DNA of 64,000 nt from Eledone cirrhosa. Lineage: Eukaryota. Made by a program: the position numbers and the translations under genes. The stretch spans positions 36,766,001-36,830,000 of the forward strand of contig OZ024750.1 of the NCBI GenBank assembly GCA_964016885.1, written 5' to 3'. Positions within the stretch are counted from its first letter, which is position 1, and every line of letters begins with the position of its first letter. The notes beneath the pieces are model-generated. The model was not told the DNA's origin. It worked only from the letters and a program-made list of their open reading frames with translations, and searched no databases. This document shows, one piece after another, positions 2,516-64,000 of the stretch.

Positions 2516-2557
2516 TCACAGAGTTTAGTCCCTCATATGAGGGACTAAACTCTGTGA
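2516..2557. repeat. Perfect 42-bp palindrome (foldback) next to (TA)n
   Basis: TCACAGAGTTTAGTCCCTCAT|ATGAGGGACTAAACTCTGTGA. Confidence 0.95.
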
Positions 2558-2561
2558 TTTA

Positions 2562-2609
<48 letters not shown>

Positions 2610-2685
2610 AATATATATATATATAAGGGATAAAGATGAAATTGAAAATGCAACTGGAGTCTTTTTTAAAATATTTATTTGGTTC

Positions 2686-2721
2686 CTTTACCGGTTTCGC
2701 AGTTCTTGTGCTTTTCAAAAG
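2686..2721 (-). ncRNA. Minimal type I hammerhead, U3-A8 core variant
   Basis: Minus strand: CTT-TTGAAAA-GCA-caagaac-TGC-GAAAC-CG-GTA-AAG; stems I and II, palindromic ACCGGT stem III and GUA triplet all present. Confidence 0.75.
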
Positions 2722-2915
2722 TAGAATTGAGATGGAAGGTTTGTGGTTTTTGTCGCATCAAATGCGAGAAAAACCACAAACATATATATATATACATATA
2801 TATGTATATATATATAAATATATATATATAATATATATATATAACCAAAAGTTTATATGGTTCGTTGTTTATTCAACACCCTCTGGTGATGTGCAGCAGA
2901 AGTAAGGGGGACAAC

Positions 2916-2956
2916 CGTCTAAGCAAATTCAGCCTTAACTGGCCTTCGTCAGGACG
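2916..2956 (-). ncRNA. Degenerate type I hammerhead motif
   Basis: Minus strand: CGTC-CTGACGA-AGGCC-agttaa-GGCT-GAAT-ttgct-TA-GACG; 4-bp stem I, but GAAA is altered to GAAT. Confidence 0.55.
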
Positions 2957-3359
2957 ATCCCTCCCACCGCTTGCGACTGCTGGACTAGAAGACAGCCGAG
3001 AATATATAGTTTTCTCGTCTGTGTAAATGAGGTGATTAATCTCATTTGCATATGAAGCTGCATAAGTTGGCTCAACTTATAATAGAAAATGCATAGACGG
3101 TTGTCCACATTGCTTCTGCTGGACATCACCAGAGGGCGTAACCCCCCCCCCCTGGTGTTTGCATAACTATAGCTTCCTAAAACCATATTTCTTTGGAGAT
3201 ATGAAATATTTATATATATACAAATAAATATATATATATATACAAATATACATATATATATGTATGTAGAGGTTATATTTAATTTGTTGGGATACAACAA
3301 GAAAATTTCCATTTGTTAATATATTGTATATATATATGTATATATATAAATATATAAAT

Positions 3360-3550
3360 ATCTGGTTCCTATAGCAGAATCAGTAGAGGGGCTGGAGAAT
3401 AAATTCTGGCTATGGAAACAGCAGTTGGAATGAAGCGGACTGAGAGTGAATCTAGCTAAGACAAAAGTGTTGATGAGTAGAAAAGAGGACAAAACTCTGA
3501 TTCCGTCCAGGAAATGGCCATGTTCGATATGCATAAAAGGAACTGGCATC
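3360..3550 (+). pseudogene. RTE LINE reverse transcriptase fragment
   Basis: IAESVEGLENKFWLWKQQLE*SGLRVNLAKTKVLM...KWPCSIC; lacks the rest of the ORF and has an in-frame stop. Confidence 0.85.
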
Positions 3551-4971: not shown

Positions 4972-5379
4972 ATAGTAATCCAATAATAATACTACAATAG
5001 ATTTTTCTTCCGTTGTGGAAATGTATGTTATAAATTCTTCTGAAACCCTTAGTTGAATTATTACATCACTTACTGATATTTGAAGCACTTGAGGCCCTGC
5101 CATTGATGAAACGGCTCATTCGCAGCAGGTAGTTTTATCCACAATCAGAGATCTGCTGTCCGGCACTGACTGACTCTAATAGTCAGACTCTACTATCCCA
5201 TTAAGTATTCTGCTGAATAATGGTGTTACTAGATTAAAACTGGTAAAATCCTGATCTCTTCCTCTATATATATATATGAAATTTATTATACTTATTCACC
5301 AACCAACTAAATTACTTCTCTAAAAACCTAGCATTTCGAGCCACTTTTTTCCATATGAAACAGAAGTAACATTCAAAAC

Positions 5380-5595
5380 ACCAACCAGATGTGAGAAAAA
5401 CCACAAACCCTCCATCTCAATTCTTCTTTTGAAAAGCAGAACTGCAAAACCGGTAAAGGGACCAAGTAAATATATATTGTTATAAAAATAAGACTCCAGT
5501 TGCATTTTCGATTTCATCTTTTTTTCTTATACTTTCATTCGTGTAGGACATCTCGTTTTTTTTTTCATTTTGTAAAACATCACTTTCTAACAATA
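5380..5595 (+). mobile_element. 3' end of hammerhead-bearing Penelope-like family (same as 2625-2780, 23550-23650, 63630-63860)
   Basis: Hammerhead 5426-5458 CTT-TTGAAAA-GCA-gaac-TGC-AAAAC-CG-GTA-AAG (G12>A), then AT-rich tail running into (TA)n. Confidence 0.7.
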
Positions 5596-5835: not shown

Positions 5836-5896
5836 TATATTATATATATATTATATATATTATATATATATATATATTATATATATTATATATATA

Positions 5897-5937
<41 letters not shown>

Positions 5938-5985
5938 TATATATATATATATATTATATATTATACATATATTATATATATATAA

Positions 5986-6028
<43 letters not shown>

Positions 6029-6095
6029 ATATATTATATATTATACATATATTATATATATATAATATATATTATATATATATATATAATATATA
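5836..6095. repeat. Degenerate (TA)n tract
   Basis: Direct reading. Confidence 0.97.

Positions 6096-6279: not shown

Positions 6280-6284
<5 letters not shown>
6099..6284 (+). mobile_element. SINE family A full copy
   Basis: GGTGGATTGGCAGTATC...GTAGAAACAATT. Confidence 0.92.

Positions 6285-6364
<80 letters not shown>

Positions 6365-7100: not shown

Positions 7101-7101
<1 letters not shown>
6367..7101 (+). mobile_element. RTE LINE 3' pieces (short tail 6367-6475, longer copy 6500-7101)
   Basis: GRPRKTWDELINSDI ORF and 3' UTR matching 1700-2258; (GAT)n tails. Confidence 0.9.
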
Positions 7102-7131
<30 letters not shown>

Positions 7132-7217
7132 ATATATAATATATGCATAATATATATATATTATATATATATATTATATATATATATTATACATATATTA
7201 TATATATATATATATAC

Positions 7218-7427
7218 TATTCCACATCACAGCACACAGATTGATGTGAAACTCCTTACCCCCAATCCCTCTCCACTATCACACTAACTGACTGTATTTC
7301 ATTCTATTTTTCAACAGCTAGATCTAACTGTTGAAAAATAGAATGAAATACAGTCAGTTAGTGTGATAGTGGAGAGGGATTGGGGGTAAGGAGTTTCACA
7401 TCAATCTGTGTGCTGTGATGTGGAATA
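7218..7427. repeat. Foldback palindrome, 105-bp arms, no spacer
   Basis: TATTCCACATCAC...CAGCTAGA|TCTAACTG...GTGATGTGGAATA, one mismatch seen near the centre; starts at the edge of a (TA)n tract. Confidence 0.95.
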
Positions 7428-8361
7428 ATTGTTCTTTAACCATCGCTATAGGTGAAGGTTTTGATGTTTACCATATATGGTCAAGAGGGTAGAGAAGGTA
7501 TATATATATTTATTTGCAGATAGATGGATAATATAAAGATAGACAGACCGACAGGTGGACGGGTGTTAGGATATATGCACGCAGACACAAATATTCTTCT
7601 GCGTTGGGGAATAATTTGTATCTGTGTAACTGAGTAAATCTATGTTCTTGTAAACACGAAATTGCTGAAGATAAAATGTTAAGGTGGGGAGAAGAGAGGA
7701 TGATACATAACCTGAGACTTAATGTCTTTCATTATGAAAGAAAACAAATTTAATAATAAACGCATTTTTCTTTCTTACACACAAATGTAAAAAACCCCAA
7801 CAAAACCTAATCAATAATATGGAAGTATCTGGAATACATTGTGAATGTTTTGATATTGCATCTGGAAGATTCCTAAGTCTTCTACAATATTCCTTTTAGA
7901 ACCTCCACCACCACCACCTCCTCCTCCTCCTCTAACTGCAGCCCCCCCCCCATTTTACTCTTTCTGTTAGTATGTATTTGTTATATTTTACTTCTCATCA
8001 GATATAGCCTTGAGAGTAGATGGGATTAGATAACTTGTGTTCTTATGAGTTATGCAGGACCGAGATAATAGTGCCACTAGTATAATAGTGTGGAATGTCT
8101 TAATTACATATCTTTCATGGCTAGAGGTGAGAAATAAAATATTAACATAGCTGAAGTGTACAGAACCCCTGCTCAGTTACATGAATCAAGACAGAATATC
8201 TATAGAATTAATCAGTTTTGGATGACAAAAAGGTTATTTCCAACTCCTTCTGGTTAGGCTATTATGTGTAAGAGACAGATTAATAAAAGTGTTCATGTAT
8301 TTAAACACACTACTTAATAGGATTATATGTATATGTTTACATGTATGTATATATATATATT

Positions 8362-8714
8362 ATCATCATCAATTTATTTTATGTCTGCTTTTCCCTGCTT
8401 GCAAGGAACTGATTCTGGCTTGATTTCTACAGCTGGATGCCCTTCCTAACACCAGCCTCATTTACAGTGACGCCTACACGTCCACTTTACAGTGTGGGCT
8501 GGGTGTTTTTTTGCTTTGGCACTTCCACAACCACTTTGCAGTGGAATGATATGGACCCCAGCCCCTATCATCTCATTTCTACAGCTGAGTGAACTGGAGC
8601 AATGTGAAATAAAGTGTCTTGCTCAAGGAAACAACACATCACCCGGTCTGAGAATTGAACTCACAACCTTTCGATTGCAAGGCCAATGCTCTAACCACTA
8701 ACCCGTGTGCCTTC
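8362..8714 (-). mobile_element. SINE family B (tRNA head, CCTTGAGCAAGACACT core, RTE-derived tail)
   Basis: Reverse complement of 27821-28148. Confidence 0.92.
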
Positions 8715-8737
8715 GTAATATATATGTATATATATCT

Positions 8738-8767
<30 letters not shown>

Positions 8768-8775
<8 letters not shown>

Positions 8776-9120
8776 GAAAATAACAGATTAAAGTTTAAGC
8801 AAAGAATCGCTGCTTTCACCCTTAACGGGATCTTCTGAAACTAAAAAAGTCAATCTGTGAACGCAGAAGTAAATATTTCAAAAAACGTTCTTCCTGTCTT
8901 CCTCCGGTTGCAACGTTTTTTGAAATATTTACTTCTGCGTTCACAGATTGACTCTTTTTAGTTTCAGAAGATCCCTTTAAGGGTGAAAGTAGCGATTCTT
9001 TGCTTAAACTTTAATCTGTTATTTTCATAAATATTTGCTCTACGGTTCTTATATATTTGATATATATTTATCCTTATCGACCCCTCTTTGGATTTTACTC
9101 TTCAAATTTATTATTATTAC
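8768..9120 (+). mobile_element. (TA)n-embedded element 3' end with ~122-bp foldback (8768-8889 / 8912-9034)
   Basis: Near-perfect inverted arms with 22-nt loop; family also at 36990-37100 and 63885-63952, all ending ATTTATTATTATTAC(TA)n. Confidence 0.8.
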
Positions 9121-9276
9121 TATATATATATATGTTCTTCTGGTTTTATAATTTCACAAATGTTTACTAATAGAGAGAGAGAGTATGTATGTATGTGGTG
9201 TTTCAACAGCTATTTCTGAGTTGTCCAGAAATAGCCGTCGAAACGGCTTGAGCTCTGCCGTCAAGGTCTTGAACAT

Positions 9277-9335
<59 letters not shown>

Positions 9336-9566
9336 GAAACACACAGATACATGCGGACACACACATATATACATGAATGCATCCGCACCCAACTGTGAGT
9401 TAAGGGTGCCAACTTCACCGATGTTGCTCAATGAATGACTGGGACAGACCAATTCAGTTTGAACCAGACTGAACCAGTATCAGAGTTAAAAATACATTAT
9501 GAAGAGAGAAGAAACATTTAGATATAATTAGTAATAAAATGTATCATACCTAAACTGCTCCTAAAT

Positions 9567-9654
9567 TCCTCGACTACGTAGTTTCGTGGCATAAACAAAA
9601 ACAATATATCAAAGATATAGAGTCCTTGCGAGGTCTGCCAACTTATCAAGAGGA
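9567..9654 (-). ncRNA. Type I hammerhead, U3-A8 variant (mirror copy)
   Basis: Reverse complement of 10427-10514. Confidence 0.8.
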
Positions 9655-10426
9655 TACCTCATTTTACTAGTCTCAAGAACGCGTCTACACGACGTGAGAA
9701 AGAATCCCAAAAGGCGGAGGGGGAGATAGTCACGCGATATAACGGTCGAGAAACAGAGCTAAGCCTCTTATAACCACGAAGAAAATACCACGGAGGCGGA
9801 GGGGGTATTCATATCGAGGCCGTAGAAGAGGTAGTGAAGAAGGCGAGAAGTATGAGTAATGGAAGCTTTCCAGTTGTCCCCACACTTCAAAGATTGCTCG
9901 ACCAGAGGGAGTTATTAATATATTTAGAAACACACAGATACATGCGGACACACACATATATACATGAATGCATCCGCACCCAACTGTGAGTTAAGGGTGC
10001 CAACTTCACCAATGTTGCTCAATGAATGACTGGGACAGACCAATTCAGTTTGAACCAGACTGAACCAGTATCAGAGTTTGGCACCCTTAACTCACAGTTG
10101 GGTGCGGATGCATTCATGTATATATGTGTGTGTCCGCATGTATCTGTGTGTTTCTAAATATATTAATAACTCCCTCTGGTCGAGCAATCTTTGAAGTGTG
10201 GGGACAACTGGAAAGCTTCCATTACTCATACTTCTCGCCTTCTTCACTACCTCTTCTACGGCCTCGATATGAATACCCCCTCCGCCTCCGTGGTATTTTC
10301 TTCGTGGTTATAAGAGGCTTAACTCTGTTTCTCGACCGTTATATCGCGTGACTATCTCCCCCTCCGCCTTTTGGGATTCTTTCTCACGTCGTGTAGACGC
10401 GTTCTTGAGAATAGTAAAATGAGGTA

Positions 10427-10514
10427 TCCTCTTGATAAGTTGGCAGACCTCGCAAGGACTCTATATCTTTGATATATTGTTTTTGTTTATGCCACGAAAC
10501 TACGTAGTCGAGGA
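10427..10514 (+). ncRNA. Type I hammerhead, U3-A8 variant, extended stem II
   Basis: TCCTC-TTGATAA-GTTGGCA..TGCCAC-GAAAC-TACGTA-GTC-GAGGA; 5-bp stem I, G10.1-C11.1 pair, palindromic stem III ACTACGTAGT, GUC site at 10507-10509. Confidence 0.82.
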
Positions 10515-10583
10515 ATTTAGGAGCAGTTTAGGTATGATACATTTTATTACTAATTATATCTAAATGTTTCTTCTCTCTTCATA

Positions 10584-10648
<65 letters not shown>

Positions 10649-10653
10649 TATAC

Positions 10654-10729
<76 letters not shown>

Positions 10730-10730
<1 letters not shown>

Positions 10731-10808
10731 AAGATGAAATAAAGATGGTTATAAGAGTTCCATATATTTTATTATTTGAATCTTATAACCATCTTTATTT
10801 CATCTTTA
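10730..10808. repeat. Foldback with ~28-bp arms next to (TA)n
   Basis: TAAAGATGAAATAAAGATGGTTATAAGA ... TCTTATAACCATCTTTATTTCATCTTTA. Confidence 0.9.
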
Positions 10809-10950
10809 TTATATATACTCCAGTTCTACCAACTGTTGAGTGCTACTTATCTGATATATGCATAGTTTTATTGTTCTAGAATATTACTCAACTTCTCTCT
10901 CTCTATATATATAGAGAGAGAGAGAAGAGAGAGAGAGTGAGAGAGAGAGA

Positions 10951-11050
10951 GAGTCAGAACCCTCAAGAGCTCAAGCCGTTTTGACAGCAATTTCTGGACT
11001 CAGAAATAGCTGTCGAAACAGCTTGAGCTCTGTTGTCAGGGTTCTGACTC
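10951..11050. repeat. Foldback of the GAAACRGCTTGAGCTCTGYYGTC family (also 9200-9270, 35633-35747)
   Basis: Inverted arms around ATTTCTG-gact-CAGAAAT. Confidence 0.85.
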
Positions 11051-11448
11051 TTTGGAGATATATTTTCAGGCTTCAAATGTCAATTTGTACGCCCATATAC
11101 GGTATACATCTTTATACACACATACACACACGTATGTGTGTGTATGTAAGTATATAATCTATATATGTATGTGACTATGTATGTGTGTATGTATATAAGT
11201 ATATTTATATGTATGTATATAATTATATTTATGTGAGTATGTATGTATGTCTGACTATAGATATAATTATCCCATGCTGTCGATGGACCATACTAGCACT
11301 ATTGAAAGACTGACATGGTAAAGAAAGCTTTCTTTCCCTTTCACCAAAATGTCAACCTAATAACATTCTTTTAATATGTTCTCAGTGGGGGAGCGGTTTG
11401 ATTATTTGTCTTTGTTTTTATTGTTTCTACTGTTTTTCATTGATGATA

Positions 11449-16981: not shown

Positions 16982-17641
16982 CAGTGCTTCACAAACTATT
17001 TGATGTGGTGGACTGGCATTTTTTTTTTTCAATGTGCCAAGTACCGCTAATATTTCGTAGTAATATGGATTGGCAGTATCGGTAGAGGGTCGGACGCCAT
17101 GCTTTCCAGCATAGTTATGTCCCTTTACGATCTGAGTTCAAATTCGCCGAGGTTGACTTTGCCTTTCATCCTTACGGGGTCGATAAAATAAAGTACCAGT
17201 AATGAACTGGGTAATTTGCTGGCCTTGTGCCTAAAGTAGAAACAAATATTAATTTATACCGGAAACGATTTATATAATGAATATAATAATTGTTTCCACT
17301 TTTGGCTCAAGGCCATCAATTACCCAGTACATTACTGGTACTTGATTTTATCGACTCCGTAAGGGTGAAAGGCAAAGTTAACCTCGGCGGGATTTGAACT
17401 CAGATCGTTAAGGGACGTAACTATGCTGGAAAGCATGGTGTCCGATGAATATAATAATAGTTGACCATTTTGTTATCTTATATTTATTTTGTAAACAAAT
17501 AATACAATATCAAAACATAAAAAAGTAATAAAAGAATTCCTCAAATGACTCCTTAGCATGGGCTGGACACTGGCCACGTACCAGTAGCTGATGGCTCGCA
17601 TACCGGCACCGGTCCACGGACCACCACTTTGAGTAGCACTG
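16982..17641. mobile_element. Non-autonomous hAT-type DNA transposon with two nested family A SINEs
   Basis: Ends CAGTGCTTCACAAA / TTTGAGTAGCACTG; 8-bp TSD ATGTAGAT / GTGTAGAT; SINEs at 17066-17247 (+) and 17288-17444 (-). Confidence 0.75.
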
Positions 17642-23500: not shown

Positions 23501-23595
23501 AATTAATTTTTTTTTTTTTTTTTTCTTTATATATATAAGGAAAGAAATTGAAAATATCTCGCGAGACAAACCACAAACCCTCCATCTCAATTTTA

Positions 23596-23631
23596 CTTTT
23601 GCAAAGCATAAGAACTGTGAAACTAGTAAAG
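23596..23631 (+). ncRNA. Degenerate U3-A8 hammerhead (family of 2686-2721)
   Basis: CTT-TTGCAAA-GCA-taagaac-TGT-GAAAC-TA-GTA-AAG; A6>C; stem III is still palindromic (ACTAGT). Confidence 0.6.
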
Positions 23632-23649
23632 GACATAAACAAATATTCT

Positions 23650-24010
23650 TACTGTTGAGGAGCTGCTTCGCCATGCCGAAGCTCCTCTATACCCTTTGCA
23701 ATGCTCCGTGCTACACCCACGCATCTCTCCTCGCTGACCTCGTTCCTTGTATCCGACCGGCAGCAGAGGAGATATGCAACGTCAGGTTTGATGACATTGT
23801 ATGGCAACAGGCCACTTTACTTGTCAGATATGGTGGCCTTCGTCTCCGGTCCCCGATCTCCTTGGCTTTGCCAGAATTTATTTTATCGGTAACCTCATGC
23901 CACATCCTCGTCAGTAGGGTTCTCTAAAACACAACGGAACCCTCTGTGGTCAGGGAACGTGAGGCCGCCTGTGAGTCGTGGGACTGGACTGGCTGAGACT
24001 TAGCCCAGTA
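23650..24010 (+). pseudogene. CRE-like (RLE) non-LTR retrotransposon, post-RT fragment
   Basis: PKLLYTL..WQQATLLVRYGGLRLRS..LALPEFILS resembles the W.QA.LP...GGLG.R....A.PAF.AS motif. Confidence 0.7.
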
Positions 24011-24219: not shown

Positions 24220-24220
<1 letters not shown>

Positions 24221-25472: not shown

Positions 25473-25520
25473 TTCCCTTGCAAGCAGGGAAAAATGGACG
25501 TAAAAGGATGATGATGATGA

Positions 25521-42217: not shown

Positions 42218-42538
42218 ATATATATATGAATATATATATATATATATATGTATATGCATATATCTATATATATGTATATCTCATGCAAACCAAAAAGTTT
42301 GGATATACGAATAATAATAAATATTGCCTGTACAGCTAATCAAAGGGTGTATACATTTTGGGGGGACACCCTGTATATATATATATATATATATATACTG
42401 GTGTGAGTGTATATATATGTATATGATGATGAATGTATGTATTGTATATTTGGCAATATACTGTATGTTTAATTAAAAACATTTTGAAAACTATTTATTT
42501 TAAAGTTTTAAAGTAGTGACGATGTCACTTACTTATTC

Positions 42539-42627
42539 TCGGCAAAAACAGCAGAGAGTGATTGTCAGACAGTCTGTTTCTCGCTTGTTAGCGTTTATCA
42601 AGACCCCATACTCTGCTGCCTTTGTCG
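42539..42627 (-). ncRNA. Hammerhead motif, U3-A8 core, long extended stem I
   Basis: Minus strand: CGACAAAGGCAGCAGAG..GTC-TTGATAA-A-CGCT-aaca-AGCG-A-GAAACAG-a-CTGTC-TGAC..CTCTGCTGTTTTTGCCG. Confidence 0.6.
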
Positions 42628-42917
42628 ATAATTATAGAAGCTGGATTCTTATAGAATTCCAGTAATAATCAGTATATTGCTAAATATACTATACATACAT
42701 CCATGTATACATCGTATTTCAGAACACCAATACTATTATATATATATATATAAAGGATAACAAAATATCGTTATAGGTAATCCAATTAGAGGCTGTGAAT
42801 ACTTCTTCTTATGGATAGTTTTAGCATATGGCTTTGCTTGATTCAACAAGAGGTTTATGTAGATGACGAGTTTATGATTTCACTTGTATTCCTATGTAAG
42901 TTTATCTTGGAGTAATA

Positions 42918-43849
42918 AAATTGAAAAAGTGGAGAATAACATAGTCAACAGTACAAAAAAGGCAATTTATTTGCAGTCTAACAATTATTTCACTGATAGA
43001 GTTGTCTAAAAATTGCTGAACACTAAAAGCAGTGCCACTCAATTTTAAATACAATGTTAACTCTATTAGATCATTGGAAACTGTTAAAACAAATATATAT
43101 ATGTAACCGGCAAATTTACAAATTCAAATTACATCATCAATAATAATTGCTTCTACTTTTGGCACAAGGCCAGCAATTACCCAGTGTATTACTGGTACTT
43201 TATTTTATCAACTCAATAATAATATTAATAATAAAGATATAGAGAGAAAAGGAGGAAGAAAGGGAGATAGATACAGTAAAGAAAAAAAAGGAAAGGAAGG
43301 AGATAGAAGAAGGAAAAAGAGAAAGAAGAAAAGGAGAAATTATTATAGATAGAAATATAAAGAGAGGAAGATATATAAAGAGAGGAAGATATATATCTTC
43401 CTCTCTTTATATTTCTATCTATAATAATTTCTCCTTTTCTTCTTTCTCTTTTTCCTTCTTCTATCTCCTTCCTTTCCTTTTTTTTCTTTACTGTATCTAT
43501 CTCCCTTTCTTCCTCCTTTTCTCTCTATATCTTTATTATTAATATTATTATTGAGTTGATAAAATAAAATACCAGTAATACACTGGGTAATTGCTGGCCT
43601 TGTGCCAAAAGTAGAAGCAATTATTATTGATGATGTAATTTGAATTTGTAAATTTGCCGGTTACATATATATATTTGTTTTAACAGTTTCCAATGATCTA
43701 ATAGAGTTAACATCGTATTTAAAATTGAGTGGCACTGCTTTTAGTGTTCAGCAATTTTTAGACAACTCTATCAGTGAAATAATTGTTAGACTGCAAATAA
43801 ATCGCCTTTTTTGTACTGTTGACCATGTTATTCTCCACTTTTTCAATTT
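42918..43849. repeat. ~930-bp palindrome centred at 43392/43393
   Basis: Arms 475 and 457 bp (18-bp duplication in the left arm), a handful of substitutions, no spacer; a SINE A tail is mirrored at 43143-43212 / 43553-43627. Confidence 0.95.
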
Positions 43850-44002
43850 ATATATATATATATATATATATAAAATTGAAGAAGTGGAGAATAACATGGT
43901 ATGTATAGGTATGTATATATAGGTATGTATATATTTATGTACATCTATACGTTAATGAACTTGTTTTGCAAGGTTTTTGATATGAAATCGTGTGTTAGAA
44001 CA

Positions 44003-44129
44003 AATATTGTTATATTTGGGGAGGGCCATGTTAGAATATTGCTAGAAATATACAGTAAAGGGAGTGTGTTTTTCTACATATTTCTGGCAATATTATAACA
44101 ACATGACCCTCTCCAAATATAACAATATA
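44003..44129. repeat. Diverged foldback next to (TA)n
   Basis: ATATTGTTATATTTGGGGAGGGCCATGTT..AATATTGCTAGAAATAT / ATATTTCTGGCAATATT..AACATGACCCTCTCCAAATATAACAATAT. Confidence 0.85.
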
Positions 44130-45054: not shown

Positions 45055-46057
45055 TTTAAGGAAAACATCAGTGAGTACAGACACTATCAATATAAATGTT
45101 TAGTCCAGAAGTTCTCAAACCTTTTGACCCACCGCCCCCCCTCACGGCCACATAATACCCTCAGCCTCCCCACCCCTATTTCTAGAGAGACCTGCCTACA
45201 CGCAAATTGTAAATAAAATATCTATCTGTATACTACTAAAACTCTGTGTTTGCTTGCTCGTCTGTAATGTAATACAGCCAAAAGGGCGCATAATGGGAAA
45301 ATACTTTGAAAGGAAATTGCCCTTGAAATGGGAATACAAATGGAACAAAACAAGTTTCACATAAATCGGAGCAAGGGTTCCTGAGATATGGGGTTTTCTG
45401 CATACCTTCATAAATAGAGAGAGAGAAGGATAGAGAGAAAGAGAAAGTGGTTGTGAGAGAGTAGATTGAGAGTGAAACATAGAGAGGGAGAGAGAAGTAT
45501 AATGGAAGAGAGGGAGAGAGAGAGCTAGTGGTGTTGTTGAATGAAATTACAACCGGTGACTTCAAAGAAACGAATACAGCATTACTGTATCCTGCTAAAT
45601 AGAAAGGGTTTCTAAGTGTGTGTGAATATATGTATATATATAATAAAAATGTTTGTGAAGAAATAGGGGCTGTGTAGTTGCTCGATAAAGTATATTTATA
45701 AATAAGAGGAAGGCATGAACGGGGGAAGTTTCCCTTCATCAGTTGTCTGCTGGAGATCACGAACATTTCTATGCATTAAAGACAATATGTCTTGCTCCAG
45801 TGCGTCAATAACTAATGGAAGTTATTGGGGAAAAAGGTCAGACCTGTTTTTTTTTTGCTCCTTGCTTCACCGTCTACACAGCCTTGTTCTTAAATCCAGT
45901 AGCTCATGTGACAGCCTTTCTTTCTCTTCCATTGCTACTACACATGCTTTTCGTGTTTCCCTCTTTGGTATCTTTTTTTCTCCTTTTTTTCTTTCTTTTT
46001 TCCTTACTGTTATATATATATTTTTTTTCTCTTTCTCCTTTTTTCCCCAATAACTTA

Positions 46058-46943
46058 CAGGGTGCGGACGATATTTGTTCGCAAGATTACTGTCTAGGAA
46101 AAAATAACACAGTAGTTTTATTTTTTAAGATTTATTTATCAAACTTGGGTCAGTTTGTCTTCATGACTTGTTCTTTCGATCTCACTCGATAAACCCGCCA
46201 TTGGCTTTGATGACGGCCTCAAGGCGGCCTCGAAATCGGCTACAGGCCTTCGTCACTGTCCCCCAGCTTAGGCCCCTAAAGGCACTTGTGATCCTGGCCT
46301 TCAGATCGTCTTTCGTATTGCAGCTAGATCTGTTGGTGTCTCGTTCCATTGCGCCCCACACAAAGAAGTCAAGGGGGTTGCAGTCAGGCGAGCTGGGAGG
46401 CTAGATGTCAGGTGAAATGTGGTCGACGAAGTTCTCTGACAGCCAAGCTTGGGTCTTTCGGCTGGTATGGCAGGGCACTGAGTCTTGCTGCCACACGTAT
46501 GGCCTACCAGCAGCTACCTGGTCGATACAGGGCTTTACTTCCTCGCTCAGAACGTGGATGTAGCCATCGGTGTTCAGCTTGAGGCCCTCAGGGTAGAAGT
46601 GAGGTGGCATGATGTCACCTTGACTGCTGACAACACCTAAGATCAATGTCACTGGAAACTTTGTCTGCATGACTCTGGGCACGTTTTTGGATGAGACAGT
46701 GAGCCACCTGTTGTTCTGGGAGTTGATATTCTGGTCTTATCTGTCCTCCCGGCGTGGAATCCAAGAAGAACTCTGTGTCTCTTCCACAAATTTGGAGGTT
46801 CAAAATTATTCATAATCAATTATTCTGAAAATAAATAATGGAAATATAGTCACTGTTTTTATGAAGACAAGAGTGACAACGGAAGTAAAAAAAATTTGCA
46901 TAAAATTAGCAGTTGAAAATTGCGAACAAATATCGTCCGCACC

Positions 46944-46946
<3 letters not shown>
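46058..46946 (-). mobile_element. Internally deleted Tc1/mariner-superfamily transposon, DD37D (maT) type
   Basis: Perfect 27-bp TIRs CAGGGTGCGGACGATATTTGTTCGCAA with TA TSD; QQDSVPCH...*PPSSPDCNPLD gives 37 residues between the last two Asp; in-frame stop. Confidence 0.93.
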
Positions 46947-46992
<46 letters not shown>

Positions 46993-50642: not shown

Positions 50643-52708
50643 TATGTATACAGCTATATTGAAGCAAAACCTAGATTCAATTTGTTTAATAGATCTCTAG
50701 TTTATGATATCTTTGTAATTTTGTAAACCTGACATGCTGGAAATAATTTACATATTAAAATTTCAAGAGTAATTATTGAAATATTAATATAGTACTGAAA
50801 AACCACAAGAGGAATTTCAAGGTTAAGCTAGCACACCTAGTTTCTAAGTTATTTTTAATGTCAATTAGAATAAGCTCTGCTGGTCGTGCTTGGGGATCCA
50901 ATCAGATCAATTGAAGATGGTTGCATCTGACAGGACTCACTGGAAGGAGTGTTTGAGGACTCTGTCTCCACAACCTTTCCAGGAATAAGTGGGCAAAGAA
51001 GGAGAAGAAAAATTAGAAAATTATATAATTATTTTTACATGGATTGTTGAATGCATCTACAAGAGATTTAAAGCATTTGATATTAGATATGTGTGTTTAA
51101 TATTAGAGTTAATTGTCTTAGTAATATTATGAATAGAGTTCTAACACCAATATGTACATAGTCTACTGTTGGAATCAGTTTAAGAATGCAAAAAAAAAAG
51201 GGTGGGGAAATACAAGGAAAAATCTAAAACTAAAACTAATATAAAATGCATATAGTCTATAAAACTATTCAGATAATAGAACTGAACTATGATCCCACTT
51301 CTCAGATTTAAAAACATCTTTATTCTGAGGCAAAAAGAGAGTGGTTGGGGTGGAGGGCACGGAAAATAAAAAGCAGACAAGTTTTATGTAAGAATTAATG
51401 GAACCAGATACAAAGCATGTGAGCATTATAAAAAAAAAAAATGATGGTGCTATGAAGTCATAGTACATCATGTATTAATATCAGCAGTGTTCAATTCACA
51501 TGGAAATCAATATAATATTTGTATGTTCTATATTCCTATACCAATAAATATACAATTGATAACATCAAAATTGTTGCCACATTTCCTTATTTTCAGGAGA
51601 ATTTTTGTTTTGCTATATCTAGCTGAACATAGTTGATGAAGTTTTAGGATTTTAATCCAAACTGTAGGAATTATATAAATTTGTAATATTTAAGAAATAG
51701 ATAGATTTATATATATTAACTCATTTATTAAGTGTTAAGTTAATGTTTAGACATTTAATGCAAAGAGTATAAAAATACTAACAATAAATAATCATGCGAG
51801 ATCTCTGACATTACGCACTAATACAGAAGACCCAACTTCCCACGGACACAGGTCAAAGCTGAAGCATATATACAGTATGCACCACCCTTATCTCCCATAT
51901 ATCTCCCATGAGGACAGACTGAAGTATACATACAGTGAAACCCCTAGTCCACATGGTAAAGTAGTCATAATTCAGTAAAAAGGACCCTGGCCACACTATA
52001 AAGTGGTCATGTATGGGAAAAGCGCCCAGCCCATATTGTAAGAAATGCCCAAGAAATGCTGTATGTCAATACAGTGCCCCTACAACTCCATTGGGTGCTA
52101 CATGACCATGTATATATACATAAAGTTTAATTTTCATTCTTCAATATCTTACAACCAACAATTGCTTCACATTGTATATTTTTTTAATCATGCTTTTATT
52201 TTTCAACACTATGCAATATTTTCAAAATTACAATGAAGTGATATTGAATGTAACCTATAGCTAATGATTAATCGTTTAATTAGTTTAGAAAAGAGCAAGA
52301 AACGTAACAGTTTTATGAAAACCTTCATAAGATAATGGAAAGAAAATTTTTAAGCTTCTTATTTTAATATGATTTTATCATTGTAAAAGACAGACTGAAA
52401 ATAATACCAATTTGTATACAAAAATAACACTATTAATGTTTGTTCTTTTCTCTTACAATCATTATTTTTAATAAGTTTAATAGAAATACGGATTGATTTT
52501 CTTCTGGGGAATTAATAAACCAAAATATTACAATATCATTAGTATTCTAATGATAATTGCTATTTAAAAATGACCCTCAAGTTACAAATTAGTTTAACTT
52601 TTTTTAAAATAAAATTTGTTTTTGCTCTAACATGGTGGATACATAAATGCATTCATAAGTGTAGCAGAAAAAATAAACTATTATTATTTTAGGGTTATTG
52701 CCCTACTC

Positions 52709-52749
52709 AATCTTGATAAAGAGCAATAACCCTAAAATAATTGTAGATT
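52709..52749 (+). ncRNA. Degenerate U3-A8 hammerhead with short upstream foldback
   Basis: AATC-TTGATAA-AGAG-caataa-CCCT-AAAA-TAATT-GTA-GATT; the inverted copy at 52683-52704 restores stem II AGGG/CCCT; G12>A. Confidence 0.55.
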
Positions 52750-53204
52750 ATTTTTTCTCTCTGCTACTGCTGGAACAAAAGGATGACAGTTGTCTAGAAC
52801 ACATGACATAATGAGGCTGTTTGCTTGCAAACAATCCAAATATTAATAATATTATTATTATATTATTGTTATTCACTCACGAATGTATTTTTAAAAATAA
52901 TTTTATTGATATTTTTTTTTTTTTTACTATATAATTTTTCTAGATGTATTATACTTCAGTAACATAATGAAAAGTAAAACAACAAAAAACAAAGAAGGAT
53001 TACAATATCCATCTTGACTGGACATTCTATCATATCTCTGCCCAGCAGAAAAGATGGTGAGAGCATTGCCACAAAGAACAGCCAGCAATACTTGCTGCAT
53101 CAAGCATTCCACCCCCTACAACTCTTTCCTCATTATATGTTCAGTAGTCTGCCCTGTCAAGCTGCTAATGGCAACAGCCACCCAGTGGTACATGGCTGCA
53201 TTAA

Positions 53205-54509: not shown

Positions 54510-55410
54510 GTTGTATATCATTGCTGGTAGAATAGATGAAACTTTTAATATAGAGAGAAGAATGTCATCTACCTCTATGTTACCAATCTTTGAGGGTCAG
54601 AGGGCTAGTGTTGGATATAGCCACAGCTACTTCTTATAAGAGGTGAATTGGCATAGTCATTAGAACGTCGGCTAGAATCATCATCATCATCATCATCATC
54701 ATTTCATTTTACGTCCGCTTTTTCCCTGCTTGCAAGGGTGGGACGGGAACTGATTCTGGCTTGATTTCTACAGCTGGATGCCCTTCCTAACACCAACCTC
54801 GTTTACAGTGAGTGCTGGGTGCTTTTTTGCCGTGGCACCTGCACGACCACTTTGCAGTGGAATGATAGGGACCCCAGTCCCTATCATCTCATTTTTACAG
54901 CTGAGTAAACTGGAGCAATGTGAAATAAAGTGTCTTGCTCAAGGAAACAAGGAATGCTTTATGGTATTTGTTCCTGCTCTCTGCTCTCTGAGTTTAAATC
55001 CCACTGAGGTCAACTTTGGCTTTCATCATTTTGAGGTCAATAAAAAATGTACCAGTCTTGTGCTGGGGTCGATTTTTCCTCTCTTTGGAAGGAATCTTCT
55101 GTACTTAGGCCTGGAGAGTGATGGGCTCCACCAGGCTTAAAATGCCCAAGGAACGTCATATGTTAATACGGCACCTCTATACTATATCAGGAGTTACGGG
55201 ACCATACATACTTCTCTACACCAAATAGTTGTTGTGTGTGAGTGAGGTTTTTGTATGTAAGTGAGATACAGGCTTCTGGCCCTTGCTGTGTTGTATATCA
55301 CTGCTGGTAGAATAGATGAAAGCTATAATATAGAGAAGAATACCATCGACCTCTATGTCACCTGTCTCTGAGGGCCAGAGGGCCAGTGTTGGATATAGCT
55401 CCAACTACTT
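54510..55410. repeat. Diverged local duplication interrupted by SINEs
   Basis: 54510-54633 resembles 55290-55411; truncated SINE B at 54678-54949 (-) and old SINE A at ~54950-55070. Confidence 0.75.
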
Positions 55411-56273
55411 CTCCACACCAAATAACTGTGGTCTGTGGGTGTGGGATTGTATGTAAGTGAGATGCAGGCTTCTGGCCCATCAATGAAGTGTGTATCTCCA
55501 CTTCAACACCAACCTGGTCAGCTGACAAGCTGTCTGACCCTTGCTCAGGAAAGTGTGGGAACAATGTAAACTCAATGTGATCCCTGGCCCATCTGAGAGA
55601 TCAGTGGATCCAGTTAATTAGTGGCTTCATCTGTGATGACCCATCCACCCATCCCAACTCTTGTACCATCTGGTTGTTGTGGATGTCTGAAACTTGCTTA
55701 TTTTTAAGGTTCATTTCTTGAGTTCAAATGTCGTTTTCATGGTTGTTACCTGATGGTGCACGACATTTATAATACTCAGTCTCTGTAGTGTGTGAATATG
55801 TGTGAGCGTGAGAATGTGTGTGTGTATCCAAACTGTTTATTCGATGTAGAACTGCTACATTAAAAAAATCCAAAGGTTTGCATGTTCCTCAGAAGCTCCC
55901 ACATTCAGCTTATTATTCTAGAATCTAATACTACAAAAATTATGCAGCAATGATGTTGCAACGTTCAAGAACGCTGCAAATATATATATATATAAACAAA
56001 TGTAGTAAACTATAAAGTAGTATTGTTAATGCAAGGTATATAATGAAAAAAGCTGGTAGAATGTGGTAGAAATATATAAAGAGCAAAGGATGACAAATAA
56101 AACAAAACAGTAATATTTTACACAGGATATTTCAACATAATATTTCAGAGCTAATACTCTCTTTTTAAATACGAAATAGAAATGGTTCAAAACAAAAACA
56201 AATTATTGATGTGTTCTTCCTTAACTGGCCTATGTGTCTGAAATACATATTCACTTTTAATATATAAGTTTAT

Positions 56274-56612
56274 GGAGGTACATGGCTTAGTGGTTAGAGC
56301 ATTGGCCTTGCAATCGAAAGGTTGTGAGTTCAATTCTCAGACTGGGTGATGTGTTGTTTCCTTGAGCAAGAGACTTTATTTCACATTGCTCCAGTTTACT
56401 CAGCTGTAGAAATGAGATGATAGGGACTGGGGTCCCTATCATTCCACTGCAAAGTGGTCGTGAAGGTGCTACGGCAAAAAAGCACCCAGCACTCACTGTA
56501 AATGAGGTTGGTGTTAGGAAGCACATCCAGCTGTAGAAATCCTGCCAGAATCAGTTCCCGTCCCACCCTTGCAAGCAGGGAAAAGCGGATGTAAAATGAT
56601 GATGATGATGAA
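56274..56612 (+). mobile_element. SINE family B
   Basis: Full copy. Confidence 0.92.
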
Positions 56613-59125: not shown

Positions 59126-59167
<42 letters not shown>

Positions 59168-59168
<1 letters not shown>

Positions 59169-62100
59169 CCAACATTGCCATATTAAGAGTAGGAAGTTTA
59201 AATGTTCGAGGCCTGGAGTCGCCCTGGAAGCAGGGTCACCTGCTCAACGACCTCAGGGCTCTACAAATGGATGTAATTGCTGTCAGTGAGACCATGATTT
59301 CCGACACGTGTGCAATAGCCCCCATTTTCGATGACTATCGGATCTTCGCATCTGTTAGTCAGCCTGGAATGGGATGCGGAGTGGCAGTGCTATTTAGGAA
59401 AGGTTTGGATCTCAAGGTAAGGTTGATCTTCCGGGACCCGGACGGAAAGTCAGTGGTCCTGGATATGAACAATAGCGAAGATGGTGCCTTTAGACTGGTG
59501 GCCGTCTACGTCCCTACCGGGGAAGGACGGCCAAACTTCTTTATACGCCTGTGTACATCTCGCCCTTTATCATTAGTGGGGAAATGGAATGGCATCTTAG
59601 ATGCATGCTAGGACTGTGTGGGAGTAGCCGATAGGAGCGGGGGGTGCAATAGCCTCAAGTACCTGATCAGCAAGTTCCAACTGTCTGACAGATATTGACT
59701 ACATTTCCCTAATGCGGCAGTGTGGAGCTGGACCAATCATATAGGGTCATCTAGATCATATATAGACAAGATATTCATTAGGAAAATAGATAGAAATAGT
59801 GTACTCTGTCCACATTTTAAAACAGTCAACCATATAGATCACAAGTTTGTGATCTGAATAGGTGACCTAGAGAAGACTTGTAGATTAGGACCTGGTTACT
59901 GGAAGCTGAACATGTCGTTTCTGGCACAGAAGGCTTACAGGGATTGGGTCAACAATTTAGTTAAACAAAAATTGACAGAGGGGTGGTCATCAACAACAGA
60001 TGGTGGGGGGCTCTCAAAAGAGGGATTAGAGTAAGTTTGATATAGTTTAACAAAGAAGTGCCATTAGAGAAAAATAGAAAGGAGGGGGAGCTGGTAGCTA
60101 AGTTAGACGAGGCTATTTGTAGTGTCGGTGAGAATGGCATTAGACCATTTCTTCAATGCGAAACACAAAGGTTGCATTGTCAGAGCTAAGGCGTGTGCTC
60201 TGAGAAACAAGGGAACCAAAGTTGTTCGATAGGCCTGCGTGGCAGAGGTGCAGCGTGGTAATAAAACCACAATATGGTCTTTGACGGACTGAGATGGACA
60301 CGAGCTGAGCGATTCCAGGCGGATAGTGATGGACTTCAGTCTCTACCTCAACGGCTTCCTGCACCTTTTGACAGCCAACGTTGAGAGCTGTGAAAGGCTG
60401 ATAACTACAGACGAAATTCCTGATTCCCTTGTGCGCTGCATGAGGCGCAAATCACCCGGTTTGGATGGTCTGCCCTTCGAGCTTTACATAGATATGCCAG
60501 ACTTGTTCTCCAATCTCCTCATGCACTCTACTGTAACTGGCAGCAGAACGGAAGTATTCCCAGTTCTGTGAGCCAGGGCATAGAGACACTGATAAGGAAA
60601 GACAAGAACAAGAGGGACACATTAGATAACTTCAGGCGACCCATAACTCTGCTCAACACAGACTTTAAGATTTTGGCCAAGGTTGAAAATTTGGTTGGGG
60701 AGGCACAAACTTGTGCAATCACTACCAGGACCATACACAATAACCTCCACCTCATGCAATACATCATAGAGAGGGTAGGGTGTAAACCTAACTTTGGTGG
60801 GGCTCTGATCAATTTAGAGCAATCAAAAGCATTCAATAAAGTTGACCATCGCTACCTGGAGGCTGTCCTCAAGGCAGTTGGCTTCAACCCCATCTTCAGA
60901 AGCTGGATTGTTGCAATGCAGTACGGCATCTGCTCAGTGGTCAAAGTTCATGGCCACCTCTTGGAACCATGTCAGATCTCTCAATTGGCACCGTCAATGG
61001 TGTCCTCTTTGCTCCCTTCTGTACGTATTGACTCTCAAGCCTTTACTGCAGAAACTGAAGCTGTTGTAGGGCATCCCGCTCGAACTGGGATGCGGAAAGG
61101 CTGTGTCAGCTTATGCAGACAACATCACCGTGATGGGGTCAGACACCTTGGAAATCGAGGTGGTCGGCAATTTATTGGAGGAATATGAAAGGTTGACGGG
61201 AGCAAAACTTAACCCGGAAAAATCGGTGAGCTTGCAACTTGGCACTTGGAGAGGCAAGTCCATGCTGTCCAACAGTGTCATTGGGTGCTAGACAGATGGT
61301 CCGGTAAAGTTGCTTGGGGTTTGGTCGGGCCAGACCTCCTGGTGGATAAGAATTGTGATGAGGTGATGGGCAGGTTAGCCAGTCTCACCCAGAAATGGGC
61401 TGTGAGGAAGCTATCACTGAAAGGTTTGGCGGAGGTGGCGAATGCGTACATCACGTCGTCATCTATTACCCCTTGACCATCATGCCTTGCCCCTATCCGC
61501 GCCTCGCCAAGTTGGAACGGCTCCTCTTCAAATTCTTTTGGAGGGACAGGTTCCATTGGTGAGATGGTCCAATTGCTGCCAGCACCTTCTGCGCAGAGGG
61601 CTGGGCATGCCGTGGCTAATGATACGCTGAGATTGCGGCATCTCCAGATATTCTGCCTTGATGGTGCTCGCTGTTTGTCAGACAGGCCTTTCTGCAACAG
61701 TCCTGGGTCAAGTATAGACCGAGACTGGGTGACTGGCATCTGGAATGTTGCCAGGCACTTACTGCTCTCTACCAGGCAGGCTATGTGGTCAGTGGAATTT
61801 CAACTCTTGAGTTCTATAGAGGATTAGTGGTGGGCAAGTGTGACGACTCACTTGGAGAGACTTTGGGCATCAACGAAGTTCAACCGACCAGTCTGTTCAG
61901 GAGGACCTTCAAGCCAGGGACGATGGATAACTTCCAAAAATCCCTTGCTTGGCAGTGCTGCTGGGGGGGGGGGGGGGCACTGCCAGTTCAAGATAAACTC
62001 TACAGGTACAGAAGTGCTGTCAGATGGACCTGCCCGAGATGCGCGCAGAGCGACGAAACCATTCTGCACGCACTCGTTCAGTGTTCGTGCATTACTGACT

Positions 62101-62690
62101 TGTCGAGTTATGTCAGACAGCTGTTGTCGCATGTAGAACGGATCCGGCTATTGACCAAGTCCATAGTGAAGATTGATTCGCCGCCTTCTTTTGGCCAGGA
62201 AGAGCAGGCAATTTTCCTCTGTCTGGTGGCAGTTGCAAAAGAGGTTGTATGGTGGACGAGGCTGAAAGTCCTGAAGACAGACACTTTCTCTTCGGCCAAT
62301 CCCTCATCAACTTTTTCAAATTTCACTTGGTGAGGAAGGAGAGAGAAGTGCTGCCCCCCCCCCCCCCCCAGTACATTTGCTGAAAGGTGGGTGAATGTGG
62401 CGACAATGGCCCGCGTGAGTGGGCCTACCCTGATCATGATCCTGTAGGCTGGTGAATTTGAGGCGGAGAGAGGGGTGCCCTCGAAGTGTCAGGTGGTTCA
62501 GGATTGGTGGGGTACCTGAAGCAACCCTGAGTGGTTATCTCCCCTATTGGGGAATTTTCATTGTTGTATTTTTCTTATTGCTATTGTTTTCCTATTTTTT
62601 ACTCGATTTTTATGTAAAACCCCCACTGTCCCCGTCTATTGTATTGTGCCCTATATGTCGGCCCTTGTGGCCAATATATAAAACCATTAT
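59168..62690 (+). pseudogene. L1/Tx1-clade LINE, near-complete but disrupted ORF2 plus 3' UTR
   Basis: EN (GSLNVRGL, VSET, VAVYVP, SYIDKI, DH, GYWKLN), RT (KSPGLDGLP, RPITLLNTDFKILAK, KAFNKVDH, SAYADN), zinc knuckle CPRC..ETILHALVQC; many frameshifts and stops. Confidence 0.93.
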
Positions 62691-62730
62691 TATTATTAGT
62701 AGTAGTAGTTGTAGTAGTAGTAGTTATTGC

Positions 62731-62772
<42 letters not shown>

Positions 62773-63629
62773 TATTGCAGTAGTAGTAGCAGTAGTAGTT
62801 ATATAGTTATCTATTCATTGATCTATTTCTATGAGGAATATATGAAGTGCATGACAGTCAGTAGAGAATGGGGACAGGTAAAAACTTTAAGGAATAGATG
62901 GTGCAATTACCTGTTGCTGATTAAAAGAATTCATTTATTTTATAGAGTGAAGTCATTAGCTGTACATTAATCAACAATATTTTATATCAAAAGAAAATTA
63001 TTTTCTATTTCAGCAGTTTTTGGTAATAAAGACAATATTATTTGGCTATTTTATCTTCTTTCTATAATCTCTCATTAAATGGAGAGTCTTTGATTATTGA
63101 AAATATTCATCTTATTTTAAAAACAGCTATAAATAGATTATAATTTACATCAAAATTTCAAAATCACTGTTTAAATTAGCTAATGCATTTATCATGTTTT
63201 GCATATTACTAATAAAAAAAAAAATAATGAAATAAACTCAATAAATAAATAATGAGAAGCAGAGAAAATATAATAAAATCAAATAAAATCAAATGAAAAA
63301 AATAAAAAATAAAGAAAGGCAGAAATAAAAGTCCACAACAAATAGATGCTATCAGAATTCTGACAGTTAAAATTAAGTTGTTTTGGAAATGATATATATT
63401 ATATTACTTAGCAAAGTAAATATGTGTTGTTAGGGACAAAAGAAACTCTTAGAGGAACAAAAATTCTACTATTTGTTGGCAGGATATTGTTTCCCCACAG
63501 GATCGAACCAGGAAATCAATACACATACCACTTAAGATGCAAATCATAGATTTTAAAACAGACATACACATTGAGGGAGAGTAAAGGAAGATATAACTTT
63601 AATTGTATATATATATAGAGAGAGAGAGA

Positions 63630-63853
63630 GAGAAAAAGAGATGAAATCGAAAATGCAACGGGAGTCTTATTTTTTTTTTTTAAATATATATATTTATTTG
63701 GTTCCGCGAAACCGGTAAAGGAACCAAATAAATATATATATTTTTTTTTAAAAATAAGACTCCAGTTGCATTTTCGATTTCATCTCTTTTTCTTTATACT
63801 TTCACTCGTGTAGGACACCTCGGTTATTTTTCAATTTGTAAAAAAAACCTCAC

Positions 63854-63860
<7 letters not shown>
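63630..63860 (+). mobile_element. Foldback 3' end of the U3-A8 hammerhead family
   Basis: 63630-63705 is inverted against 63720-63790; hammerhead 3' half GC-GAAAC-CG-GTA-AAG at 63706-63720 sits at the junction; ends in (TA)n. Confidence 0.8.
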
Positions 63861-63890
<30 letters not shown>

Positions 63891-64000
63891 TAACAGATTA
63901 AAGTTTAAGCAAAGAATCTTTGGATTATAGTCTTCACATTTATTATTATTACTATATATATATATATATATCGTCATCATCATCATCATCGTTTAACGTC

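Follow-up and report, generated by a model that had tools for sequence, protein, structure and literature searches.

Foldback palindromes beside (TA)n tracts of Eledone cirrhosa as probable scars of short Penelope-like element insertions

The stretch of Eledone cirrhosa DNA studied here (assembly GCA_964016885.1, contig OZ024750.1, positions 36,766,001 to 36,830,000 of the forward strand) is 64,000 nt long; we refer to it as the window, number it from its first letter, and restrict all counts to these 64 kb. It is AT-rich animal DNA (37% GC) with many (TA)n tracts, tRNA-derived short interspersed elements (SINEs) and pieces of RTE-type long interspersed elements (LINEs). It also carries a series of foldbacks, inverted repeats whose arms meet across a short loop or none, which an original prediction made from the letters alone had assigned to Penelope-like elements (PLEs) primed from both cut strands of (TA)n targets. 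We describe the foldbacks, the element families and marks found in them, and the routes by which they may have formed.

Foldbacks beside (TA)n tracts

All 13 foldbacks of the original prediction are present at their predicted positions. Their arms run from 16 bp (at 37138) to 512 bp (9492-10589), with loops of 0-74 nt and arm identities of 90-100%, matching the predicted arms of 16 to about 500 bp and divergence of 0-10%. The claim that nearly all of them abut TA tracts also held, since the outer end lies within 20 nt of a (TA)n of at least five units in 11 of the 13. The exceptions are the foldback at 10951, which is 37 nt from a (TA)5 with a (GA)n run between, and the one at 52683 (an inverted repeat with 36-bp arms, 52666-52758, with no PLE mark), which lies 3.2 kb from any (TA)5 and 548 nt from the nearest (TA)4 and is outside the pattern.

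An unbiased scan with simple repeats masked returned 15 short-loop hairpins, against 0-2 per window in 10 locally shuffled windows. The predicted enrichment within 20 nt of (TA)n was borne out in the window: 10 of these 15 hairpins fall inside that distance of a (TA)5, whereas 10,000 random placements gave 0.74 on average and never more than 5. This list omitted 37138 and 44003, and included 10966 and four hairpins away from TA tracts (17145, 25475, 36439, 52666). We conclude that the foldbacks are real and strongly non-random beside (TA)n. The events are not fully independent, because five of them sit in one chain (8768-11051) with a TA tract between each neighbouring pair.

The arms are identical in four short foldbacks and match at more than 99% in the two longest. 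That the foldbacks are of different ages, as was also proposed, is plausible from the 0-10% divergence, with the limits that arms of 16-30 bp are undatable and that conversion between arms could reset divergence.

Several inverted pairs were set aside. The long-spacer pairs at 25540-26897, 54720-56584, 17090-17445 and 30401-30780 are opposed SINE copies, and the pair at 46056-46948 belongs to a mariner-like remnant, so none was counted as a foldback. We also noted further inverted repeats at 145-216 (17 nt from a (TA)68), at 36439-36486 (a perfect 21-bp hairpin abutting a (GTG)8 run) and at 42429-42704 (a 35-bp pair with a 206-nt spacer). Long degenerate TA arrays at 5836-6095, 6283-6364 and 7101-7216 show repeated phase shifts and internal palindromes of up to 81 bp, and are possibly scars of repeated cutting and repair.

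Element families and Penelope-like marks

Self-comparison of the arms within the window sorted many of them into the dispersed families A, B and D, beside a single element E. Family A comprises 2622-2781, 5340-5592, 23540-23650 and 63631-63859; family B comprises 8772-9120, 36992-37097 and 63888-63952; and family D comprises 9200-9280, 10950-11051 and 35632-35748. The copies measure 60-750 nt and are stacked in chains within one microsatellite.

The three inverted pieces of family A share one internal starting point (the proximal site), which falls about 65 nt before the end to which the two complete forward copies extend. The copy at 5340-5592 (plus strand) has this full tail of about 65 nt, ends on (TA)n and has no foldback. 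The copy at 2622-2781 (minus strand) starts at the proximal site on (TA)n, carries a minimal hammerhead of the U3-A8 core type (-2718) and has a 20-bp foldback at its 5' end (2739-2781). At 23540-23650 (plus strand) an 18-nt inverted piece from the proximal site is joined to an interrupted forward piece, and at 63618-63859 (plus strand) a (GA)n run is followed by an inverted copy from the proximal site (63631-63705), a forward copy starting within the hammerhead and a tail to (TA)13. A metagenome scan with a family A motif found 0 loci.

Family B repeats this arrangement with other ends: all three of its inverted pieces begin about 90 nt short of the end common to its three forward copies. The copy at 8772-9120 (plus strand) consists of an inverted copy (8772-8889), a 22-nt loop and a forward copy with the tail of about 90 nt ending on (TA)n, with a hammerhead-like fold in both arms. 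The other two, both on the plus strand, are non-overlapping inversions, with 63 nt inverted and the last 37 nt or so forward at 36992-37097, and 32 nt inverted and the last 33 nt or so forward at 63888-63952, between two (TA)n tracts. The one-sided extensions thus measure about 65 nt in A and about 90 nt in B; for arms that occur as a single copy, a tail is indistinguishable from flank.

All three family D copies have a common fold point with a 3-bp stem closing it, and their arms are closer to their own partners (90-91%) than to other subfamily copies (77-89%). They are a copy with a 19-bp foldback ending on (TA)26 (9200-9280, plus strand; 16% divergence in the 19-bp arm), a foldback (10950-11051) that reaches (TA)n by way of a (GA)n run missing from its other arm (together 10913-11051), and a foldback with 57-bp arms of 91% identity and a 77-nt extension on one side only (35555-35748).

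Element E (9327-10589), with (TA)n on both sides, consists of a partial tandem, a full inverted unit and a nested forward copy. Its tandem is a 161-nt repeat (9327-9487 and 9918-10078, 99.4% identical) and its inverted arms are 512 bp long and 99.6% identical. Both hallmarks of PLE architecture, the partial tandem and the adjacent inverted 5'-truncated copy, are therefore found in E, and inverted copies are found in A, B and D.

Hammerheads were called as pattern matches in a descriptor scan for type I folds, self-cleavage being predicted only. With an exact core the scan gave eight matches at seven loci, against 0-2 in 40 shuffles, and six of the seven loci lie no more than 250 nt 5' of a (TA)5, against an expectation of 23%. 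Exact-core folds within the listed foldbacks are those at -2718 of family A, at +10432 and -9649 in both arms of E (U3-A8 core, GUC site) and at -2458. This last fold has a weak 3-bp helix II and lies 63 nt 5' of its TA tract; it belongs to a PLE-like 3' end (2344-2557, minus strand), and a perfect 21-bp palindrome with zero loop (2516-2557) forms the 5' end of that sequence. The family B fold (+8965 and -8837, in both arms) has one core mismatch and a U.U pair at the base of helix II, as seen in hammerheads of the Hydra clade of PLEs (Craig et al. 2021, PMC8557442, File S2). The U3-A8 core has been described in Cercyon PLEs of Schistosoma (Cervera and de la Pena 2014, PMC4209133). By hammerhead score only E beat all shuffles (37 against a shuffle maximum of 30).

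The descriptor scan found no hammerhead at 7218, 10730, 42918, 44003 or 52683, and a hammerhead-like reading of 7218 failed the descriptor. A search of the window with Rfam gave no hammerhead at E<=1, its matches being microRNA-like ones to hairpins and tRNA-like ones to SINE heads. Away from the foldbacks, a canonical-core hammerhead of Hydra type at -28351 is followed by about 156 nt to a (TA)5 (28164-28360, minus strand), forming a PLE 3' end with no foldback. Exact-core hammerhead-like folds also end 10 nt (35805-35864, plus strand) and 58 nt (27476-27590, minus strand) before (TA)n, the former with a 27-bp inverted partner at 36829-36855.

A second kind of mark is a reverse transcriptase (RT) remnant. 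The 16-bp foldback at 37138-37188 stands at the 5' end of a decayed PLE-type RT fragment, probably of the Hydra clade (37179-37515, one stop and one frameshift; the whole feature is 37138-37515, plus strand), and the decayed frame begins inside the right arm of the foldback. Comparison by eye with a published alignment first drew attention to the remnant. In the tests that followed it had matches to 284 proteins at E<=0.001 and to a 713-aa full-length relative by tblastn at E 9e-18, and scored 48.2 and 35.6 bits against a profile of 120 relatives, where the reversed control reached at most 1.4. In the 120 full-length relatives the motifs RW[KR], DKT, CxCx5C and Y[IV]G occur in 117, 115, 116 and 100, respectively. 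The fragment itself abuts (TA)20 and does not span RW[KR], DKT or CxCX5C.

Elsewhere in the window nothing exceeded 3 bits against the same profile, and no remnant of an open reading frame (ORF) was found at the other 12 foldbacks. Pfam searches of 146 of the 235 ORFs of at least 60 aa gave no PLE domain, and a word-index protein search with a second RT fragment gave nothing. The GIY-YIG endonuclease was not found in the window, and a sub-threshold GIY-YIG match was seen in one of six relatives scanned. GIY-YIG-like words picked out by eye (in the 42918 arm, at 5278-5390 upstream of family A, and at 63360-63600) did not rise above the reversed control.

Six of the 13 foldbacks therefore carry a PLE mark, either a hammerhead fold (2516, 2741, 8768, 9491, 63630) or RT sequence (37138), and two more belong to the dispersed family D. 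The proposed tie between foldbacks and PLEs accordingly stands for the six and goes without a mark in five, one of which duplicates host-like DNA.

Routes to the foldbacks

We examined the 11 outer junctions at which one arm runs into a TA or CT tract. Inspection for microhomology found at least 3 nt of TA alternation at six of them (7218 with one extra base), where the null rate is 0.056 (p about 1e-5); of the rest, two end in a CT alternation that runs into a (CT)n missing from the other arm, and three have none. The centres of the zero-loop foldbacks are self-complementary words containing A and T. Since a snapped-back strand runs with the same polarity as the RNA, priming on RNA and priming on the new strand are not separable by the outer junction alone. 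The nesting of the two copies can separate them: snap-back needs the loop and the outer extension on the same copy, and two independent primings give this half the time. Assigning the loop from other copies, we found the short copy nested inside the long one on both sides in all five foldbacks where the loop was assignable (2739, 9200, 9492, 35632, 63631); 8768 was unassignable, and five cases are few.

We propose, with a probability of roughly 0.65, that the foldbacks are head-to-head scars of short, aborted PLE insertions, likely made by snap-back of the cDNA before its capture by a second (TA)n end. The element's GIY-YIG nuclease would cut both strands within (TA)n, as published for another PLE in vitro. 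One TA end would then prime reverse transcription at the RNA's 3' end, which fits the observed copies that end on (TA)n at shared points. The cDNA would halt after tens to hundreds of bases and prime on itself at a 3-6-nt self-complementary motif, yielding the nested inverted copy and short loop that we observe. The other TA end would anneal to the first AT-rich patch of the new strand; this would set the family-specific outer end and the one-sided tail of 65-90 nt, and the microhomology and fixed ends are what we see. As a side route, the second TA end may prime on the RNA at the same AT-rich patch, giving inversions without overlap such as the two family B copies. Each insertion would leave (TA)n on both sides, and later insertions would therefore pile up in chains. 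A target-site duplication, if there is one, would be masked by the (TA)n itself. Snap-back is favoured because there are five nested palindromes with short loops.

Several observations weigh against this proposal. Five of the 13 foldbacks (7218, 10730, 42918, 44003, 52683) have no PLE mark, and no full-length element in the window links A, B, D or E to an ORF. As to the hammerheads, the scores of A and B lie within the shuffled range, the fold of B has its core mismatch, none of the four folds beats shuffles by free energy, a 3' half-hammerhead in family D (including 9200-9280) is not above background (three matches against 0-4 in shuffles), and the descriptor was loosened stepwise after the sequence had been viewed. 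As to the junctions, there is no microhomology at 2739 or 37138, and at 42918 it appears only after a 1-nt slip; moreover, in vitro work on the only PLE so tested, the anole Poseidon element PAc, shows initiation in the absence of homology to the target (PMC11167929). The foldback at 10950 is ambiguous for nesting, and in family A the two arms of 63631 resemble other copies as much as they resemble each other (about 90% in either comparison). Finally, snap-back alone does not account for the two non-overlapping inversions of family B, which call for another priming event or a deletion afterwards.

Twin priming of the L1 type on one RNA copies two different stretches and so produces an inversion, not a palindrome. 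For that reason it yields no palindrome unless the first cDNA passes the second site. The original prediction invoked it as the source of the palindromes. Under two-strand priming throughout, both cut TA ends would prime on PLE RNA at distal and proximal AU-rich sites, on one RNA in turn or on the two RNAs of a dimer, and the cDNAs would be joined end to end. The proximal sites are indeed fixed and AU-rich, six of the 11 junctions have TA-like microhomology, and in the anole the PLE protein, a predicted dimer, both cuts and extends the two strands and starts at two sites that set the tail (PMC11167929). Inverted and forward parts from non-overlapping RNA stretches, with similar forward lengths of 33-37 nt, are found in the family B copies at 36992 and 63888; in the 13 foldbacks the two parts overlap by definition. 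Twin priming would however require that the ends of the two cDNAs come to lie 0-74 nt apart, and it expects nesting half the time, yet all five assignable cases are nested. In addition, the short arms at 2516, 2739, 9200 and 37138 end internally without TA homology, one of them inside an ORF. The twin-priming reading is thus half right, with support from the fixed second sites, the microhomology and the two family B inversions; as the route throughout we consider it unlikely, the nested short-loop copies being a better fit to self-priming of the cDNA.

A further objection is that the foldbacks are products of DNA-break repair that involve no retroelement RNA: a (TA)n tract breaks (by cruciform cleavage or a PLE nick), the resected 3' end folds back, a repair polymerase copies the flank and end joining closes the gap, PLE ends being copied merely as flanks of (TA)n. 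The foldback at 42918-43900 argues for such events. It is a 460-bp foldback of host-like DNA centred on GATATATATC, a TA run, followed by a second foldback of 28 bp centred on (TA)12. Both arms contain low-complexity DNA and a SINE fragment that is cut off at identical points in each, and their CpG observed/expected ratio is 0.34, host-like in its depletion, against 1.0-1.6 in A, B and E. Neither a hammerhead nor an ORF was found in 42918-43900. We think that this one foldback is probably a scar of DNA snap-back repair at a broken TA tract, the break having come from a PLE nuclease or from the tract itself, although 460 bp is long for foldback break repair.

Three more foldbacks might be PLE scars or repaired host DNA, and could be either. 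They are a 105-bp zero-loop foldback (7218-7427) with 71 nt to the next (TA)n (together 7218-7498), in which no PLE mark passed our tests; a foldback of 26-29 bp with about 94 nt to the next tract (10728-10903); and a gapped foldback of about 50 bp ending on (TA)n (44004-44128), the last two also with no PLE mark. Inverted duplications of 5-34 bp formed by foldback at yeast breaks (PMC11724301) likewise favour repair. Break repair cannot, however, account for inverted copies that start at the same family site at three separate loci, for the non-overlapping inversions of B or for the combination of tandem and inverted copies in E, and the PLE-marked folds sit at the 5' truncation of the element, not at the TA tract. 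As a general explanation of the foldbacks we find it improbable.

Non-autonomous DNA transposons of the MITE (miniature inverted-repeat transposable element) or foldback type, with long terminal inverted repeats and a preference for TA microsatellites, are a far weaker candidate. Such elements typically show inverted repeats flanked by TA, the window has a mariner-like remnant (46056-46948) whose terminal repeats are 29 bp long, and all three family D copies fold at one point; but arm lengths, loops, one-sided tails and inner junctions vary among copies of one family (A, B, D), and there are hammerhead or RT marks. For A, B and 37138 this origin is already largely refuted. A library or assembly artefact, with foldback chimeras formed at TA tracts as the identical arms of four short foldbacks and the more than 99% identity of the two longest might suggest, is scarcely credible, because all four differences between the 42918 arms are transitions (two of them at CpG) and the same boundaries recur at distant loci, and arm divergence reaches 10% (16% in the 9200 arm). 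A search of sequencing runs found three, all from one sample, that hold 0.69-0.72 of the sampled words of 7200-11100; these are perhaps from the source sample and so give no independent support, and no RNA run was among those listed.

Returning to snap-back of PLE cDNA, we offer one wider speculation. PLE cuts at (TA)n might drive a single snap-back-and-capture pathway that also duplicates host DNA (42918, perhaps 7218, 10730 and 44003) and seeds (GA)n or (CT)n runs (10913-10949, 63618-63630) by stutter at the capture site. We regard this as doubtful; if it were true, TA microsatellites would be self-renewing sources of palindrome chains and new microsatellites, and the scars would settle how PLEs form their inverted copy.

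The window has other features at or near its microsatellites. (TA)n is joined directly to (GA)n at 233-478, 10904-10953 and 63606-63630; in the latter two the inverted arm ends in a TCT that runs on into the (GA)n, which the other arm lacks, a possible stutter at the junction. The 7-nt word TTAATTG precedes three (TA)n tracts (226-232, 2559-2565, 63599-63605) and is perhaps the end of another TA-targeting family. The mariner-like remnant at 46056-46948, with a decayed transposase frame between its terminal inverted repeats, adjoins (TA)18 and is abutted by an element with 17-bp inverted repeats (45819-46056). A remnant of a Helitron-type PIF1 helicase (24220-25860; Pfam PF05970 and PF21530) ends beside a TA array, and a SINE insertion in it forms a 20-bp hairpin (25475-25558). 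At 59140-62330 (plus strand) lies a decayed L1/Tx1-type LINE with endonuclease, RT and zf-RVT remnants (Pfam).

Relation to known systems

Palindromes at (TA)n are a published PLE architecture, seen here in new families; inverted copies, palindromic junctions, (TA)n targeting and extension from two strands are already in print. Endonuclease-bearing PLEs are described as having partial tandems, an adjacent inverted 5'-truncated copy, a one-sided tail of 30-40 bp and (TA)n targeting (Craig et al. 2021, PMC8557442), which bears out the premise of the original prediction that PLE insertions often carry inverted 5' segments. The same source lists Octopus Naiad and Hydra families with a (TA)n preference and defines the Hydra clade by its RWK, DKT and CxCX5C motifs. 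Palindromes at an inverted PLE junction have been interpreted as self-priming (Arkhipova et al. 2013, PMC3846280), and for PAc in vitro both strands were cut at AT-rich DNA and extended, with two internal initiation sites defining the tail (Frangieh et al. 2024, PMC11167929). Outside retroelements, foldback templated inversions, mostly of 5-34 bp, occur in yeast host DNA at induced double-strand breaks (Yu et al. 2024, PMC11724301), and stem-loop extension by polymerase theta is a related foldback chemistry (PMC11292364).

As to what is new, five motifs of 12-13 nt from A, B, D and E gave no match in the supplement of Craig et al. 2021 (PMC8557442), a weak test since it was by exact match only. 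An annotation of Octopus vulgaris repeats reports 31 recently active PLE families, its main text leaving palindromes unmentioned (PMC13282606), and the portion of a retrozyme preprint that we consulted held nothing on such foldbacks. The openly accessible literature on twin priming and Penelope, on self-priming and head-to-head copies, and on cephalopod palindromes yielded no paper on these families, on tails of 65-90 nt, on second ends with TA microhomology or on a test of nesting.

The phenomenon is thus known, and the gain is in mechanistic detail. The literature still treats the origin of the tandem and inverted structures of PLEs as undefined. Many natural junctions are available in a genome that has several short families targeted to TA, and asking of each palindrome whether its loop and tail share one arm can, at genome scale, tell self-priming apart from priming on two strands. 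Such chains also explain the dense short palindromes beside (TA)n that repeat annotation often leaves unclassified.

Set against L1 twin priming, the annealing of a second strand at an internal RNA site fits the family B copies at 36992 and 63888, whereas most structures in the window are nested palindromes. Foldback inversions in yeast resemble ours as self-primed inverted duplications whose far end is captured by end joining; our arms of 16-29 bp match them in size, and 42918-43900 fits in form. They differ in arising in host DNA at induced breaks, without family-specific ends. PAc is alike in that both strands are cut and extended and two initiation sites set the tail, and unlike in that most second ends here have a TA microhomology of 3-4 nt; no model of the inverted copy was found in that account.

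The Hydra clade (Hydra-1_Obim, Penelope-13_HM) shares (TA)n targeting; proteins with Hydra motifs are the nearest to the fragment at 37179-37515, the Hydra pattern of helices II and III recurs in the family B hammerhead and in the one at -28351, and one published member is annotated with an inverted 5' copy. A and E depart from it in using the U3-A8 core, known from Schistosoma Cercyon. With the canonical architecture of PLEs the structures of the window share the tandem, the head-to-head inverted copy, the palindromes at junctions, a tail-like extension on one side and a hammerhead near the 3' end; they are set apart by tails of about 65 nt (A) and about 90 nt (B) in place of 30-40, and by copies of 60-750 nt that are chained, none of them full-length.

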